DNA of 64,000 nucleotides from Escherichia virus TH58. Shown piece after piece: positions 394 to 57,616 of the stretch; positions within the stretch are counted from its first letter, which is position 1, and each line of letters starts with the position of its first letter. The position numbers and the translations under genes are program-made. A model generated the notes under the pieces. The model had not been told where the DNA came from and ran no database searches. It saw only the letters and a program-made list of their open reading frames with translations. Location of the stretch: the sequence record MT446423.1. One strand, given 5' to 3'.

Positions 394-422
394 GTTTACT
401 TCTCCTCTAGATGTGTTACTAT
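394..422 (+). promoter_or_regulatory. T4 early-type promoter (GTTTAC-N17-TACTAT with upstream TGt)
   Basis: GTTTAC 394-399, TACTAT 417-422, followed by GAGGAG RBS and ATG 451. Confidence 0.5.
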
Positions 423-450
423 AGACCTATCAAAACAAGAGGAGAATATT

Positions 451-678
451 ATGAAACGTCAAATCATTAAAAATGTAACTACTGATTCAAACATCGATGA
501 GTTTGAAGATGTTCTGTTTAATCCTGATTTAGTTGTTGTACAGAAAAACTGGACCGAATTTTTATGCTACACCGAAGTGGTTTACGTTTACGAAAAACTC
601 GGTGATGAAATGCCTATCTACGGTATCTTCCGTGAAATCACTGAAAACGGTACAACTTATTGGAAGGAAACTTACTAA
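451..678 (+). CDS. hypothetical small early protein (75 aa)
   Basis: Track ORF 382-678 trimmed to first ATG with RBS (aagaGGAGaatatt-ATG). Confidence 0.5.
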
Positions 679-3641: not shown

Positions 3642-4742
3642 ATGAAAGTTATGTTTATCCCATCTCGTGCGGTCCCATTTAATCCTGACCGTGTACAAGG
3701 TGGCCTTGAAGCAGTACATTTAAATGTGTTGAAATATTTAGTTTCTATTGGTGCTGATATTGATTATATCGGTTTTGATAATGACACGTTTGGTGACTGG
3801 AAAGTTACACACCATCCTGTTGGTCATCTGACTAAATTCAGTCTAGGTATGAGTTATACTATGGCTCGTAAGATTGTTGAACTAGCCGGCATCCATGAAT
3901 ACGATTTTGTTGTTACTATGGAACCGACTAAACTAACCGTTCAGGCAATTAAAGACGCAGGTCTCTCTAAAGTTCATAAGAATTTTATGGCAACACCATT
4001 TGAACCGGTATCTCGTGGCATTGTTCAAATTTGGGACCAGACTATTCAAATTCATAAGAATGGTGGTAAGAGTTATGCTCCTACTAAAGCCTTCCGTGAA
4101 TTTGAACGTAAATATTGTTATATGACTTCAGGTCTGACTGACAAAATTGATTATGATTATTGGCGAGCAAATCCGTTGTTTGAAGCCGAAGATTATCCGG
4201 TTATTTGTTTGAATGAGAAACCTGAAGTTCTTCCGGCGACTGATTTGATTATTAGTGCACAACGTTATGACACTAAAATGCGTCGTACTGATGTTGCTCT
4301 TGAAGCGATTAAAGCACTAGGCGAAAATGGTGTAGGATATTGTCCAAGCAAATGGGCACCACCAGCTAAATATCCTGTTATTATTGATGCTCAACATAGT
4401 GAAATCATGGAACGTCTTAAAACAGCTAAAGCACTTATTAATACGTGTCCTGACACAGGTACGGTAGAGAATAGTTCTATTGAAGCCATCTCTAAAGGTG
4501 TCCCTGTAATCCAGTTAGTTTTTAAGGATTATCCTCATGCGACATTCGAATACGACCCAGATACTGTGCGTGTAGAAATTGATTCCTCTACTCCTAAGAA
4601 AGAAGTAGTTGCGCTTTACACAAAAGCTGTATTAGAATTCACTGACACATACGAAGCTCGAGTTAAACGTGCTGAAGCAGTATGGAAGAAGTATAATCGA
4701 GATGCAGTTGTTGCGATGTGGGATAAAATCTTCACAGCGTAA
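3642..4742 (+). CDS. putative GT-B fold glycosyltransferase (accessory gene, substrate unknown)
   Basis: 366 aa; N-terminal MKVMFIPSRAV...GGLEAV and C-terminal GTVENSSIEAISKGVPVI resemble GT-B/GT4 signatures; no similarity to T4 alpha-gt or beta-gt as recalled. Confidence 0.4.
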   Translation: MKVMFIPSRAVPFNPDRVQGGLEAVHLNVLKYLVSIGADIDYIGFDNDTFGDWKVTHHPVGHLTKFSLGMSYTMARKIVELAGIHEYDFVVTMEPTKLTVQAIKDAGLSKVHKNFMATPFEPVSRGIVQIWDQTIQIHKNGGKSYAPTKAFREFERKYCYMTSGLTDKIDYDYWRANPLFEAEDYPVICLNEKPEVLPATDLIISAQRYDTKMRRTDVALEAIKALGENGVGYCPSKWAPPAKYPVIIDAQHSEIMERLKTAKALINTCPDTGTVENSSIEAISKGVPVIQLVFKDYPHATFEYDPDTVRVEIDSSTPKKEVVALYTKAVLEFTDTYEARVKRAEAVWKKYNRDAVVAMWDKIFTA

Positions 4743-4758: not shown

Positions 4759-4809
4759 GGCACTATTACACATAAGATGATAAATTATATGGTCTTTAGT
4801 AATAGTGCC
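4759..4809 (+). repeat. 11-bp inverted repeat GGCACTATTAC / GTAATAGTGCC bracketing a 29-nt AT-rich loop
   Basis: Exact reverse complement read directly from sequence; lies between glycosyltransferase-like gene and rIIA.1-position ORF. Confidence 0.6.
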
Positions 4810-4834: not shown

Positions 4835-5035
4835 ATGAGAACGTATAACGTAGACTTGGAACTTTTTGATAAAGCAGTGCTCCGGGAATTCCGGCTTATC
4901 CAAAGATTTTTTGATATCGAATCAGCTGAAGCCTTTAAAGAACGCTTTAAGGAAATTCGATATAAAATACAAAACGATACAGCTACTAAAGAAGAACTTC
5001 TTGAAGTAGCAGAAATTTTTAAACGTAACTTGTGA
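4835..5035 (+). CDS. small protein at the rIIA.1 position (66 aa)
   Basis: ORF track; RBS GAAGAGAA upstream; position directly upstream of rIIA. Confidence 0.5.
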   Translation: MRTYNVDLELFDKAVLREFRLIQRFFDIESAEAFKERFKEIRYKIQNDTATKEELLEVAEIFKRNL

Positions 5036-9053: not shown

Positions 9054-9090
9054 GTTTACAACTAAGTAGGACTATGATATAGTAGTCCTA
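9054..9090 (+). promoter_or_regulatory. early-type promoter with -10 inside an inverted repeat
   Basis: GTTTAC 9054-9059, TGa-TATAGT 9075-9083, inverted repeat TAGGACTA 9067-9074 / TAGTCCTA 9083-9090. Confidence 0.5.
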
Positions 9091-9565: not shown

Positions 9566-9603
9566 GTTTACATCAAGGTAGGATTATGGTATAGTAGTCC
9601 TAC
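9566..9603 (+). promoter_or_regulatory. early-type promoter with -10 inside an inverted repeat
   Basis: GTTTAC 9566-9571, TGg-TATAGT 9587-9595, inverted repeat GTAGGATTA 9578-9586 / TAGTCCTAC 9595-9603 (one G-T position). Confidence 0.5.
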
Positions 9604-9827: not shown

Positions 9828-9862
9828 TGTACAAACTCTTGAGAGCAGAGTATAATGCTCTC
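9828..9862 (+). promoter_or_regulatory. sigma70/early-type promoter with TATAAT inside inverted repeat GAGAGCA / TGCTCTC
   Basis: TTGTAC 9828-9833, TATAAT 9851-9856, 7-bp inverted repeat 9841-9847 / 9856-9862. Confidence 0.45.
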
Positions 9863-9900
9863 ATGGATTACAAAAACATTAATCAATTGAGGAAATTAGC

Positions 9901-29128: not shown

Positions 29129-29139
29129 TATACAATCAG

Positions 29140-29165
29140 ATAGGGTTATGTTATAGTAGCCCTAT
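29140..29165 (+). promoter_or_regulatory. -10-like TGt-TATAGT embedded in inverted repeat ATAGGGTT / AGCCCTAT
   Basis: Same architecture as 9067-9090 and 9578-9603; -35 element weak. Confidence 0.4.
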
Positions 29166-29192
29166 CAAATCAAAAGTGAAGCGGAGAATAAA

Positions 29193-31399: not shown

Positions 31400-31436
31400 G
31401 TGTATAATAAATTAACGGGATAAATACTATCCCGTT
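31400..31436 (+). promoter_or_regulatory. extended -10 (TGtTATAAT) followed by 9-bp hairpin AACGGGATA / TATCCCGTT
   Basis: TGTATAAT 31400-31407; hairpin 31414-31436 would sit at the 5' end of the nrdA transcript. Confidence 0.4.
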
Positions 31437-37731: not shown

Positions 37732-37946
37732 CTAAAGAACAGCATGAATACATTAAAGGGCTTATCTATGAATCTGAAATGGCGGCTATGATTTATGGGC
37801 GACAGATTCAACGATTAGAATCTTTGCCTCCGACTAATGACCGCTTGTTAGTTCAGTCTCGTGCTAATCTGAAAAATGAATATCAGAATAAGTGGGCAGT
37901 AGCTACTAAAGCTCTTCATGAGTATATTGGATCTTTAGTAAAATAG
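37722..37946 (+). CDS. hypothetical protein (74 aa)
   Basis: ORF track. Confidence 0.5.
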   Translation: MPMTKEQHEYIKGLIYESEMAAMIYGRQIQRLESLPPTNDRLLVQSRANLKNEYQNKWAVATKALHEYIGSLVK

Positions 37947-37981
37947 TTTACAAACTCTCGGGAGCGGAGTATAATGCTCCT
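37946..37981 (+). promoter_or_regulatory. early-type promoter with TATAAT inside inverted repeat GGGAGC / GCTCCT
   Basis: GTTTAC 37946-37951, TATAAT 37970-37975; core GAGTATAATGCTC shared with 9848-9860. Confidence 0.45.
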
Positions 37982-40071: not shown

Positions 40072-40101
40072 GTTTACAACATGGTGGAGTTGTGATACTA
40101 T
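40072..40101 (+). promoter_or_regulatory. T4 early-type promoter
   Basis: GTTTAC 40072-40077, TGa-TACTAT 40093-40101. Confidence 0.5.
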
Positions 40102-40129
40102 AACTCTACCAACAAATGAGGAAATAGAA

Positions 40130-43570: not shown

Positions 43571-43593
43571 GGGAGACCGAAGTCTCCCTTTTG
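43571..43593 (+). terminator. rho-independent terminator (GGGAGACCGAAGTCTCCC + TTTT)
   Basis: Perfect 7-bp stem and T-run. Confidence 0.7.
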
Positions 43594-43625: not shown

Positions 43626-43654
43626 GTTTACTCTCCTGTAGGATGTGTTACTAT
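43626..43654 (+). promoter_or_regulatory. T4 early-type promoter
   Basis: GTTTAC 43626-43631, TGt-TACTAT 43646-43654. Confidence 0.5.
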
Positions 43655-43695
43655 AGACTTGTACCACCTAATCAATAAAACAATCGGAGAATAAA

Positions 43696-44064
43696 ATGAA
43701 AATCAATCTGAACTCATACATCAAATGTAAAGACCACGATGGTTATAAAGCTATCGAAATTAAAGAATTCCAGTGGATGTTATACAAAGAGCAATTTGAG
43801 TTCGTAGGTTGTATGACACCTGAAGGTCCTTCAGATGATTTCTCTTGGAAAATTGTGTTAGCAAACTTTTTCACAGGTGACACATACGAATTAAAAACTA
43901 TTATTACCGGTAAAATTCGTTCAGAAACATATGTTGACGAAGAAACTGGTTACTCTGAAGATGTTACATGGTATCAAAATGGACGCATTACAGCAGATAA
44001 CCTGATCGAAAAAATGAAAGCCAAAGGTGTTTTAAATTTAGACAATTGGATTAAAGTTGCATAA
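43696..44064 (+). CDS. hypothetical protein (122 aa)
   Basis: ORF track; RBS GGAGAA. Confidence 0.6.
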   Translation: MKINLNSYIKCKDHDGYKAIEIKEFQWMLYKEQFEFVGCMTPEGPSDDFSWKIVLANFFTGDTYELKTIITGKIRSETYVDEETGYSEDVTWYQNGRITADNLIEKMKAKGVLNLDNWIKVA

Positions 44065-44068
44065 AACA

Positions 44069-44108
44069 GTTTACTTTGGTACAGGTTATGTTATTATAGA
44101 CCTGTACC
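44069..44108 (+). promoter_or_regulatory. early-type promoter; -10 region bracketed by 8-bp inverted repeat GGTACAGG / CCTGTACC
   Basis: GTTTAC 44069-44074, TATTAT 44092-44097, inverted repeat 44078-44085 / 44101-44108. Confidence 0.45.
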
Positions 44109-44138
44109 AACAAACAACTTAAACATCTGGAGAATAAA

Positions 44139-44504
44139 ATGAACTACACCAACTTCGAACGTAAATATGTTTCTAACGGTATCGCTGGTTCTATTGATAC
44201 GATTTGTTTATGGAAACATAAAAATGGTTCAGTATGTGAAATTGAGCAGTATATGACTCCTAATTACGTTTATATGCGATTTGAAAATGGCATCACGGTT
44301 TCAGTCACAATGGAAGGTTCCAACTTCAAAATTGCATTAGATGACGATTTCCGTCAACGTGATTTAGGTACTCATCCTTGCTGGAACGGTGTTAATCGTA
44401 AACTTCTGGTTAAAACTTGGATTCGTCATATCCTGAGTAACCGAGCTAAACCTGAACATCTCGAAGCAATCTTTGATGTAGTTCTTAACGAATTCGATAT
44501 CTAA
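44139..44504 (+). CDS. hypothetical protein (121 aa)
   Basis: ORF track; RBS GGAGAA. Confidence 0.6.
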   Translation: MNYTNFERKYVSNGIAGSIDTICLWKHKNGSVCEIEQYMTPNYVYMRFENGITVSVTMEGSNFKIALDDDFRQRDLGTHPCWNGVNRKLLVKTWIRHILSNRAKPEHLEAIFDVVLNEFDI

Positions 44505-44510
44505 TTTAAC

Positions 44511-44528
44511 TGGGAGCCGAAGCTCCCA
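44511..44528 (+). other. RNA hairpin TGGGAGCCGAAGCTCCCA without U-tract
   Basis: Perfect 7-bp stem with 4-nt loop, followed by GAGGAAATT-ATG of next gene rather than a T-run. Confidence 0.4.
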
Positions 44529-44539
44529 GTGAGGAAATT

Positions 44540-51331: not shown

Positions 51332-51340
51332 ACCCCTAAA

Positions 51341-51364
51341 GGGAGACAACGTCTCCCTTTTTTC
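51341..51364 (+). terminator. rho-independent terminator (GGGAGACAACGTCTCCC + T7)
   Basis: Perfect stem, TTTTTTT; sits between convergent genes. Confidence 0.65.
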
Positions 51365-52327
51365 TTATAGACCTAAAACTCTTGATGTAGAATTCACCAT
51401 ACCTGTCATTGTGTTTATATTAGACACACCTCCAGCGGTCCCACCTAATCTAGAAAGTCTTGATACTGCACTTCCTAGCCCAGAATCATTCTGATTATTC
51501 CCAAACATTCCTGAAACACTACTAATAAGTCCTGATTCCAGCCATTCTAAAGCAGCCTGTCTATTTACAGCACCTGATTGCATAACGCGATAAGCAAATG
51601 TTACATCAAAAACTGTTATCTGATTATCACCATCATACGTTAACTCAGGAGAAGAGACACTAACAGGAATACATCCTGTGAACATGACAGCGGTATGTGG
51701 TAAACCATTTCGTGCATGTAAATTAACCTGAATATCTGCTTCGACGTCTTGTGGTAAAGCACGAAGACCTGTTACAGGGTCTTGGACCGAGTTTACCCAG
51801 TCTTGCATTGCTCTAAAGTTAGATGCTTCGGAATCCATTCTAAAGCTTATTACTAACGGGTCCATTTCACGACCGGTAATTCGGATATTCGGGGAGTTAT
51901 AGTTGAAATCCGTTTCATAAGATAATCGGTTCTCAGGCATTTTTACAGAATAAATCATTAAACCCGTATTATTATATGCCATATTGAAGAAGTCTATCAG
52001 ATAAGTTCCTACTGTGAACTCACCTAACAAGCTTTGTACCGTACGTTGACTCATTGCTCCAATCAGATATTTACTTGCACCCGATTTTCGAATTAATTTC
52101 TGTGTTCCTGCTGTAATCAAGGTTGTTACGCCCTGATTGATATCACCTTGAGACAATCCTAGCCAATCTGAATCCAACCCTAAGTTATTATAAGCAAAAC
52201 TACCAATTGACGAAATTAGTGAAGACGATTTGGTTGATGGTGTAGTAGCAAATACACAACTAAACATATTGTTTCGTTGGAAATCTGCATTTATAGCTTG
52301 GTTATTAAATTCTTCTAAAGAGTACAT
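51365..52327 (-). CDS. 54: baseplate tail-tube initiator gp54
   Basis: 320 aa as T4 gp54; N-terminus MYSLEEFNNQAINADFQRNNMF. Confidence 0.9.
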   Translation of the reverse strand: MYSLEEFNNQAINADFQRNNMFSCVFATTPSTKSSSLISSIGSFAYNNLGLDSDWLGLSQGDINQGVTTLITAGTQKLIRKSGASKYLIGAMSQRTVQSLLGEFTVGTYLIDFFNMAYNNTGLMIYSVKMPENRLSYETDFNYNSPNIRITGREMDPLVISFRMDSEASNFRAMQDWVNSVQDPVTGLRALPQDVEADIQVNLHARNGLPHTAVMFTGCIPVSVSSPELTYDGDNQITVFDVTFAYRVMQSGAVNRQAALEWLESGLISSVSGMFGNNQNDSGLGSAVSRLSRLGGTAGGVSNINTMTGMVNSTSRVLGL

Positions 52328-56867: not shown

Positions 56868-57616
56868 TTTTTATGGTCCTTTTCTACTAATGTTAAAGCA
56901 ATACCACGTTCAACAGGAATCATTTGCATAATAGAATCCAATGTGTATTGACTCTTTACTAGTGAATGGTTTATCTGATAGAATGTAAAAATCTCATCAG
57001 GGTTAACTAACAATTTAAAAACCTCTAAGATATCAGTATATGTTTTAACATGGCGTTCACAACAACCTAATCTAAGGGTCAAATTAATAGGGTTCATAGA
57101 AGCAATAACCTTTTCGAGTGAGTCAATGTCTATTGCTTCTATTACTTGGATTTGGTTCTCTTCAGTCAAATCATTCCATGGGTACCATTCATCATTATAA
57201 TATATTTCTTTTATGTTTTCACTTATCATTAATGCTTTATTGTCATAAAACTTTTCAGGGAAAGAAAAACGTATTTTTATACCAGCAACATCAAGTTCAG
57301 GTTCGACTAGTTCTTTTTGATATATCTCAAATGGTGCAGTTTTTTCTTTAGAGCATTTAGGGCAAGTGAAAATAACGGGAACTTTTGTTTTGCCTATAGA
57401 GCCTGCAAAAACTTGCAGGAATATAAATGGTTGCCATGTTTTAGGGTACTCACCAAAATAATCATCAATCAGATCGGCAATTATTTCTTTTTGTTCTTGC
57501 GGCGAACGATGTTCGATATCATTTCTAACTAGTAAAAAGTCTCTATAATCCGCCACAGTGAACGGCTTAAAACGATGAACACCATCCGGTAATTTACAAC
57601 GAATTATATTAGCCAT
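56864..57616 (-). CDS. 51: baseplate hub assembly catalyst gp51
   Basis: 250 aa, near T4 gp51 (249 aa); Cys-rich (CPKC ... CCERH). Confidence 0.88.

Follow-up and report, generated by a model that had tools for sequence, protein, structure and literature searches.

Within the 64,000-nt stretch of the Escherichia virus TH58 genome analysed here (MT446423.1; below, the window), the inverted repeat between genes 30.8 and 30.7 (site A) is, as predicted from sequence, a sigma-70, T4-type early promoter of gene 30.7 whose -10 element lies in the loop of a hairpin. Taken as a whole, site A is probably a composite element of the promoter-early stem-loop (PeSL) type, in which an early promoter and a built-in stem-loop are combined, and which would also serve as a 3'-end structure for read-through RNA and as a recombination joint. 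PeSLs were defined in RB49/phi1 by Arbiol et al. 2010 (PMC2839356) and extended to T4/PST and vibriophages by Comeau et al. 2014 (PMC4122927); the design of site A is therefore already published, and we describe another instance of it in an RB69-type phage. For a second inverted repeat (site B), the modelled fold makes an intercistronic RNA hairpin, placed behind a lineage-specific gene at its 3' end, the best reading.

The window comes from an RB69-type (Mosigvirus) T4-like myovirus, with HX01, JS09, NRG-P0074 and RB69 as the best matches (about 96-97% identity), and about 6% of it is non-coding. The genes around site A follow the order cd - 31 - rIII - 30.9 - 30.8 - 30.7 on the + strand, and those around site B the order gene 39 - 366-aa glycosyltransferase-like gene - rIIA.1 - rIIA. 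The 366-aa gene is annotated as 'putative hmC-arabinosyltransferase' in one record. The features discussed below are collected in Table 1.

Table 1. Features at sites A and B and at related early promoters of the window.
Feature	Coordinates	Strand	Remarks
Gene 30.8	43696..44064	+	upstream cistron; its read-through RNA would have hairpin A near the 3' end
AT-rich stretch upstream of the -35	44049..44068	+	UP-element-like; holds the gene 30.8 stop TAA (44062-64)
-35 element GTTTAC	44069..44074	+	predicted early promoter of gene 30.7; fits the T4/PST consensus
5' arm of hairpin A, TTGGTACAGGT	44076..44086	+	within the promoter spacer; perfect reverse complement of 44100-44110
Extended -10, TGt + TATTAT	44089..44097	+	in the loop of hairpin A
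3' arm of hairpin A, ACCTGTACCAA	44100..44110	+	predicted transcription start (44104-44106) inside the arm
Shine-Dalgarno of gene 30.7, GGAGAATAAAA	44129..44139	+	exact match to the strong RegB cleavage consensus GG*AGRAYARAA (PMC3014915)
Gene 30.7	44139..44504	+	ATG at 44139; gene predicted to be served by the site A promoter
Early-promoter cassette of gene 30.8 (GTTTAC ... TACTAT ... GGAGAATAAAATG)	43626..43698	+	direct repeat with the site A cassette
Early promoter, spacer arm TTCTCCTCT (400-408) pairing with Shine-Dalgarno AGAGGAGAA (438-446)	394..453	+	second sub-design
Early promoter, TAGGACT (9067-73) / AGTCCTA (9084-90) around TATAGT	9054..9090	+	sister element at 9566-9603
Early promoter, GGGAGC (37960-65) / GCTCCT (37976-81) around TATAAT	37946..37981	+	PeSL class
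Early promoter, GGTGGAGTT (40083-91) / AACTCTACC (40102-10) around TACTAT	40072..40110	+	site A sub-design; one G·U pair
Glycosyltransferase-like gene	3642..4742	+	Mosigvirus-specific, 366 aa, upstream of hairpin B
Hairpin B	4759..4809	+	11-bp stem (4759-69 / 4799-4809), inner stem (4774-78 / 4792-96); no promoter
rIIA.1	4835..5035	+	gene downstream of hairpin B

Both inverted repeats lie where they had been predicted. At site A, GGTACAGG (44078-85) and CCTGTACC (44101-08) are separated by 15 nt, and pairing continues beyond them without mismatch to give a stem of 11 bp around a 13-nt loop. At site B, GGCACTATTAC (4759-69) and GTAATAGTGCC (4799-4809) are separated by 29 nt, and the repeat begins 17 nt past the stop codon of the 366-aa ORF, directly downstream of it as claimed. 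One distance had been misassigned: the 8-bp core of site A begins 3 nt past GTTTAC, not 17 nt downstream of it, 17 nt being the length of the spacer that separates GTTTAC (44069-74) from the -10-like TATTAT (44092-97). Both repeats exceed chance. In fact, three perfect inverted repeats with a stem of at least 11 bp and a loop of at most 40 nt are present in the window, against 1.03 in dinucleotide shuffles, and two of the three fall in non-coding DNA, where about 0.06 are expected. RNA structure prediction, proposed originally as a check, gave stable folds for site A (-19.5 kcal/mol, z -3.3) and site B (-25.2 kcal/mol, z -4.1), and both predicted hairpins lie just past stop codons. A search of Rfam at gathering thresholds returned nothing anywhere in the window.

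We trained an early-promoter weight matrix on 38 such promoters taken from the window and T4. Seventeen sites of the window score at least 17 and every other position scores below 10; site A, with a score of 30.0, ranks 10th among the 64,000 positions. This bears out the claim that the stem encloses a promoter core, which consists of GTTTAC, a 17-nt spacer and TGt-TATTAT. The consensus of T4/PST early promoters is TTTACW-N17-TAYWAT (PMC4122927), and T4 early promoters are UP/-35/TGn/-10 promoters (PMC2988021); ahead of the TTTAC hexamer of site A, 15 of 20 bases (75%; 44050-44069) are A or T. The -35 element is invariant in 18 orthologous loci apart from a GTTTTAC variant, and the TG and TA...T of the extended -10 are invariant among the orthologues. 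The ortholog in Yersinia phage fPS-90 is annotated as 'predicted early promoter', and in T4 the element recurs between 30.8 and 30.7; its 8-bp arms are the same, its loop is not. Moreover, the cassette is complete, with the upstream stop (44062-64), the Shine-Dalgarno (44129) and the ATG (44139) in place, the ORFs co-oriented and an intergenic space of 74 nt. The start position given in Table 1 is inferred from the usual distance of about 7 nt past the -10; our literature search turned up no measured 5' or 3' RNA ends, either for the phage itself or for the T4 ortholog.

Site B had been described as a similar design, and this is true of the hairpin shape: its predicted pairing probability is about 1.0 and its 29-nt loop folds on itself. 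The likeness does not reach the promoter, as site B has no -35/-10 pair and the early-promoter matrix gives it at most -5.3 (+ strand) or -7.5 (- strand), against 30.0 for site A. The AT-rich loop offers no usable -35/-10 on either strand, and the idea of a promoter at site B was given up. We considered an early promoter, a middle promoter (MotA box), a late promoter (TATAAATA) and an antisense promoter (minus-strand TATAAT) in the loop, and each was rejected for want of a usable partner or score. By inspection, site B contains neither a MotA box nor a late promoter, and the late-like GATAAATT is changed to GATAGATT in one relative. No feature is annotated at hairpin B in the two annotated relatives inspected. 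The element is confined to Mosigvirus (154 records), and all records are at least 95.6% identical, so that a covariation test is impossible and intermediates are lacking; the three positions that vary among the aligned relatives all fall outside the stems, which is not significant. A search of IMG/VR with the glycosyltransferase-like protein returned three near-identical loci only. Site B is a stem-loop at an intergenic mosaic boundary, with homology to the T4 group resuming at about 4826, 17 nt past the hairpin.

In T4, the slot of site B is occupied by an ordinary early promoter that has a hairpin in its spacer. We regard it as possible but unlikely that site B is a PeSL in decay, in which an early promoter once serving rIIA.1 has lost the -35 and -10 while the stem was kept or gained. 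The T4 promoter occupies exactly that slot, the right arm of hairpin B stands at the correct distance from the start codon, and this arm with its flank (GTAATAGTGCCCTAGCAATC) resembles the -10/initial-transcribed block GTACTATAGACCTATCAAC (-10-block score at the 99.6th percentile); however, the likeness is weak and unaided by alignment to T4, the total promoter score is only the -5.3 given above, and none of the 154 relatives is an intermediate. 'Degraded' PeSLs near indels have been described (Comeau 2014, PMC4122927). Functionally, the intercistronic RNA hairpin is the best reading of site B.

Sites A and B had been set apart as a separate family with long stems. Instead, most early promoters here and in T4 form a continuum in which site A is the strongest, and its stem is the strongest among the 16 early-promoter-like sites of the window. 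The search for further copies that had been suggested was made within the window and yielded stem-bearing promoters at 394, 9054, 9566, 37946 and 40072. The stem at 37946-37981 carries compensatory changes relative to window position 9828 and T4. The cassette of gene 30.8 is identical to 44059-44141 at 65 of 86 aligned positions (76%); it has a canonical terminator ahead of it (about 43572-43592), and its embedded stem is weak.

Four results bear on what these stems are selected for. First, the spacer of a promoter pairs better with its own sequence past the -10 than with that of other promoters, both in the window (-7.76 vs -5.31 kcal/mol, p=1.5e-4) and in T4 (-10.67 vs -5.50 kcal/mol, p=5e-5), and the complementarity is therefore no by-product of the shared consensus. 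Second, the arms covary. We took 34 ungapped spacer-17 promoters of the window and T4, picked without regard to stems, and fixed the register at columns 12-20 paired with columns 39-31. Paired cells made up 54.6% against 46.7 ± 2.0% in shuffles, cells altered on both sides numbered 51 against 28.7 ± 5.1, and the covariation score was 0.300 against 0.197, each value being reached by 0 of 500 shuffles, although the window and T4 samples are partly orthologous and hence incompletely independent. Registers slid by 1-3 columns gave at most 0.176. Third, the duplex is stabler in the sense strand than in the antisense strand (window, p=0.011; T4, p=0.0013), also beyond a composition control with mismatched pairings (window, p=0.038; T4, p=0.0005). 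Of the seven internal mismatches that an unbiased tally found in real stems, six are G·T and become G·U in the sense RNA; in control pairings the figure is 7 of 26. Fourth, embedded stems are weaker where a terminator lies upstream (-5.2 kcal/mol, n=8, vs -10.8 kcal/mol, n=30), a marginal difference (p=0.041), and the strongest ones, site A included, are all without an upstream terminator. The canonical terminators of this genome have a UUCG or CGAA tetraloop followed by TTTT. Specific pairing, covariation in a fixed register, the sense G·U bias and weaker stems behind terminators together indicate that early-promoter stems are selected as RNA structures; the strong pairing and covariation statistics hold for the promoter class, not for site A itself.

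The arms of site A are near-invariant among orthologues, and covariation at the site itself is seen in no more than a single distant relative and a single G·U variant. The sole arm variant among the orthologues is a C to T change at one locus (L006), which gives a sense-strand G·U. As the close orthologues are therefore uninformative, we used other genera and paralogous promoters. In a Klebsiella phage (L026), the -10 is enclosed by a different arm pair, TTGGGTGGT / ACCACCCAA, and to judge from this sequence it is the structure, not the sequence, that is maintained. Enterobacter phage PG7 and another locus (L018) have a promoter of 30.7 without the site A stem, and in both the spacer pairs with the Shine-Dalgarno (CTCCGTTGTAT with ATACAACGGAG in PG7), so the exact design of site A is dispensable.

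Alignment to T4 places a sharp mosaic boundary at site A. Identity is about 95% in 30.9, about 40-55% across 30.8 and 78-93% from about 44060 through 30.7, with homology to the T4 group beginning right at GTTTAC (44069); it falls again at about 44500, beside another hairpin. Phages of Kagamiyamavirus, Karamvirus and Jiaodavirus have an additional gene, encoding about 170 aa, exactly between 30.8 and 30.7. This mosaic evidence fits the role in modular shuffling proposed for PeSLs.

We propose the following mechanism for site A. Host RNA polymerase would recognise GTTTAC, the 17-nt spacer and TGt-TATTAT and would start at about 44104-44106, in the 3' arm. Because transcription is predicted to start downstream of the spacer that holds the 5' arm, hairpin A would be possible only in read-through RNA: transcripts of the 30.7 promoter would have no 5' arm and no hairpin, and those coming from the 30.8 promoter or beyond would contain both arms and form the 11-bp hairpin just past the stop codon of 30.8. 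In the modelled read-through RNA, the 5' arm is paired with a probability of 0.78-1.0. We infer both the folding in vivo and the role, for which the likeliest candidates are an attenuator and/or a 3'-exonuclease barrier of the 30.8 message. A barrier would protect this message against 3' exonucleases after RegB cleavage 19 nt downstream; the products of RegB turn into exonuclease substrates once PNK phosphatase has acted (PMC3014915). The 13-nt loop is large for a stable barrier hairpin. The stem is followed by CAAACAAC, without a U-tract, which makes efficient intrinsic termination unlikely. Hairpin A would take the place of the separate terminator with UUCG loop and U-tract found ahead of other early promoters, and may have been folded into the next promoter since the 74-nt intergenic space is too short for a separate one. 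The cassette of about 80 bp is repeated between genes, and would thereby also be a recombination joint for swapping gene modules. Control of 30.7 translation by hairpin A was considered and rejected: the 30.7 ribosome site is predicted to be open in both RNAs (probability unpaired 0.69 in the read-through RNA and 0.47 in the promoter's own transcript), so that the hairpin is no gate on 30.7 translation.

The early-promoter stems can be divided into two sub-designs. In one of them, the spacer arm pairs with the Shine-Dalgarno of the next gene, as in the element at 394-453, several T4 promoters and the 30.7 promoter of PG7; at 394-453, the predicted probability that the ribosome site is unpaired is 0.01 in the read-through RNA vs 0.88 in the promoter's own transcript. 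In the other, to which site A belongs, the 3' arm lies right behind the -10 and the ribosome site is open. No member of the latter is followed by a U-tract, the tails being A/C-rich (ATCAACAAC type), and these stems are therefore not canonical terminators. A tentative generalisation, to which we give somewhat less than even credence, is that the spacer-borne 5' arm of T-even-type early promoters is a general 'transcript-origin' switch. RNA started upstream would fold, capping the upstream message (site A) or burying the next ribosome and RegB site (394-453, many T4 promoters, PG7), and RNA started at the local promoter would stay open. If true, such a switch would spread the logic known from the late promoters of T4 e, soc, 49 and I-TevI to roughly half of the early promoters, and PeSL stems would be regulators at the RNA level rather than mainly terminators or recombination sites. 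If the stems fold only in read-through RNA, the 3'-end signal of one gene and the promoter of the next share 40 bp, and the position of the start site decides which RNAs fold. This would matter for the many genomes of T4-like therapeutic phages, both when their promoters and transcript ends are annotated and when they are engineered, since deleting or swapping genes at such joints alters the RNA structure of the neighbours too.

The stem of site A could instead act as DNA, in the form of a cruciform or a preferred crossover point, and serve chiefly in recombination between cassettes, as in the PeSL shuffling/mini-circle model. The sharp mosaic boundary at site A, the extra gene at this junction in other genera and the direct-repeat cassettes flanking 30.8 all agree with such a role, and a crossover in RB49 has been mapped within the loop of a PeSL stem-loop (PMC2839356). 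Nevertheless we consider it improbable as the main function, since homologous recombination requires the repeated cassette and not a palindrome, and since the sense G·U bias and the near-exclusive G·T mismatches would be unexpected in a cruciform, in which G·T and A·C are equally disruptive. The RNA and DNA roles of the stem are mutually compatible.

Slightly less probable again is a stem without function at site A, that is a chance or hitch-hiking palindrome in a conserved promoter. The excess of 11-bp perfect repeats in non-coding DNA (two, with about 0.06 expected) speaks against chance, as do the class-wide, promoter-specific complementarity, the covariation and the other arm pair of the Klebsiella phage, even though the arms are conserved no better than the surrounding promoter, some orthologues are without the stem, and site A shows 4 differences over about 40 positions between the window and T4, which is near the roughly 88% identity of gene 30.7.

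We give very little weight to the palindrome as an operator, at which a dimeric phage or host protein would bind half-sites around the -10 and shut the early promoter, although the dyad symmetry is centred on the -10 and the shut-off mechanism of early promoters is incompletely understood (PMC3014915). GGTACAGG is found at site A only and the exact GGCACTATTAC at site B only; the arm words are unique to each promoter, and a single protein could therefore not recognise all of them. A shared half-site word recurring at regulated promoters was not found, the arms covary and tolerate G·U, and arm and loop lengths differ between promoters. Least probable of all is that sites A and B are ordinary Rho-independent terminators with no promoter activity, the case named beforehand as a refutation, which does not hold for site A: stable hairpins do lie just past stop codons, and a PeSL stem-loop of RB49 equalled rrnB T1 in termination when placed in a reporter (PMC2839356), but the tails CAAACAACTT (A) and CTAGCAATCT (B) show no U-tract on either strand, the terminator scan calls neither site, loops of 13 nt and 29 nt are atypical, the canonical terminators of this genome look different, and site A matches the promoter consensus with a top-ranked score.

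The composite reading places site A closest to the PeSLs. Every sequence-level feature of these is found there: an intergenic cassette of about 80 bp that combines an AT-rich stretch, early promoter and stem-loop with the Shine-Dalgarno and start of the next gene, as well as a stem-loop that often overlaps the -10, repetition between small genes and an association with indels or mosaic boundaries. The 17 weight-matrix hits in the window represent the repeated cassette. However, the RB49/phi1 PeSLs have near-perfect TTGACA/TATAAT elements and polyG/polyC stems, whereas the promoters here are of the GTTTAC type with mixed-sequence stems unique to each site, and the PST/T4 stem-loops are placed 'just upstream' of the promoter in the 2014 paper (PMC4122927), whereas the stem of site A surrounds the -10. 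At site B, the promoter half of a PeSL is absent. The PeSL papers propose terminator/attenuator and recombination functions, without the sense G·U bias, the fixed-register covariation or the logic of read-through-only folding; our class-level evidence for RNA stems confined to read-through transcripts goes somewhat beyond the published description.

Analogous T-even elements with AT-rich stems on T4 early promoters were described by Repoila et al. 1994 (as cited in PMC2839356). Like site A, these elements of the internal-protein loci join T4 early promoters to AT-rich stem-loops of variable size that flank shuffled genes, and T4 has a 15-bp example of a promoter palindrome beside ipII. The 1994 study reportedly described a palindromic inverted repeat that overlaps the sequence of a T4 early promoter. 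The elements were described for two internal-protein loci only, whereas site A lies in the 30.9-30.6 region.

In four T4 genes (e, soc, 49 and I-TevI), the DNA encoding the 5' strand of an RNA helix includes the promoter, so that long RNAs from upstream fold and the promoter's own transcripts do not (PMC3014915). Site A shares this geometry, its 5' arm (44076-86) being upstream of the predicted start. The promoters of those genes are late ones and the 3' strand covers the ribosome site, whereas site A has an early promoter and an open ribosome site; the element at 394-453 and the 30.7 promoter of PG7 sequester the ribosome site in the same manner, but from an early promoter. Intrinsic terminators share with sites A and B a sense-strand hairpin right after the stop codon; the two sites differ from them in the missing U-tract and in loops of 13 and 29 nt.

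REP-like intercistronic hairpins are promoter-less stem-loops set between genes of one transcript, and they can shield the message upstream of them from 3' exonucleases. Such stabiliser hairpins are the closest functional analogue of site B, which is, unlike them, single-copy and lineage-specific and has no sequence relationship to REP elements. Other promoter-less hairpins of the window lie at 31414-31436 and 44509-44530.

At the early promoter of window 394-453, the spacer arm is perfectly complementary to the Shine-Dalgarno sequence downstream of it. In the read-through RNA, begun upstream of the promoter, the ribosome site has a predicted probability of being unpaired of 0.01, versus 0.88 in the promoter's own transcript, which should lack the 5' arm. 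The site is thus predicted by folding to be closed in the former and open in the latter. The same kind of pairing also occurs in several T4 early promoters and in the 30.7 promoter of Karamvirus PG7.

Two further stems in the window (9828-9871 and 29129-29172) enclose a -10, each with a degenerate -35, and may represent weakened or decaying cassettes (early promoter, stem-loop and the next gene's ribosome site and start codon). On the T4 minus strand (locus L028, T4 50001-80000), an early promoter at about T4 65,760-65,800, near ipII/ipIII, carries a 15-bp perfect stem whose arms TCCTAGAATTGTGAT/ATCACAATTCTAGGA surround the -10 TATATT; this stem is longer than that of site A, the early promoter of gene 30.7 in the window. 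Elements of this kind were first reported from the internal-protein locus (Repoila et al. 1994, described in PMC2839356), and this promoter lies there.

Inverted repeats and associated features of the window
Window	Feature	Sequence or size
394-453	Early promoter: spacer arm; Shine-Dalgarno	TTCTCCTCT; AGAGGAGAA
1762-3582	Topoisomerase large subunit, one ORF	606 aa
3597-3614	Canonical terminator and T-run	
3642-4742	Glycosyltransferase-like gene	
9828-9871	Stem; -35	GAGAGC/GCTCTC; TTGTAC
29129-29172	Stem; -35	ATAGGGTT/AGCCCTAT; ATATAC
43686-43696	30.8 Shine-Dalgarno region	GGAGAATAAAA
44129-44139	30.7 Shine-Dalgarno region	GGAGAATAAAA
44509-44530	Hairpin without promoter	ACTGGGAGC-cgaa-GCTCCCAGT
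44540-45154	Gene after this hairpin	204 aa
51338-51368	Canonical terminator	AAAGGGAGAC-aac-GTCTCCCTTT, then TTTTTCTT
57096-57142	Perfect inverted repeat, 12 bp, within coding region	ATAGAAGCAATA-N23-TATTGCTTCTAT

The Shine-Dalgarno regions of 30.8 and 30.7 are identical and match exactly the strong RegB cleavage consensus, GG*AGRAYARAA (PMC3014915). At the junction held in the window by site A, Kagamiyamavirus EcS1, PG7 and a Jiaodavirus Klebsiella phage carry an additional gene, about 170 aa long, between their homologues of 30.8 and 30.7, and in the Klebsiella phage both promoter cassettes flanking this gene share the stretch TTACTATAGACCTGTACCACCCAAACAGATA. The promoterless hairpin lies directly 3' of 30.7 and directly 5' of the next Shine-Dalgarno; exactly there, identity to T4 drops from about 90% to about 40%, and the gene that follows is unrelated to T4 30.6.

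In the window, one ORF encodes the whole topoisomerase large subunit, whereas in T4 it is split into genes 39 and 60, and the glycosyltransferase-like gene fills the slot of T4 60, 60.1 and mobA. The terminator between the topoisomerase gene and the glycosyltransferase-like gene leaves no space for a promoter. Judging from its A-run and T-run flanks, the terminator at 51338-51368 looks bidirectional; it stands where GC skew and gene orientation switch. The repeat at 57096-57142 is the longest perfect inverted repeat of the window.
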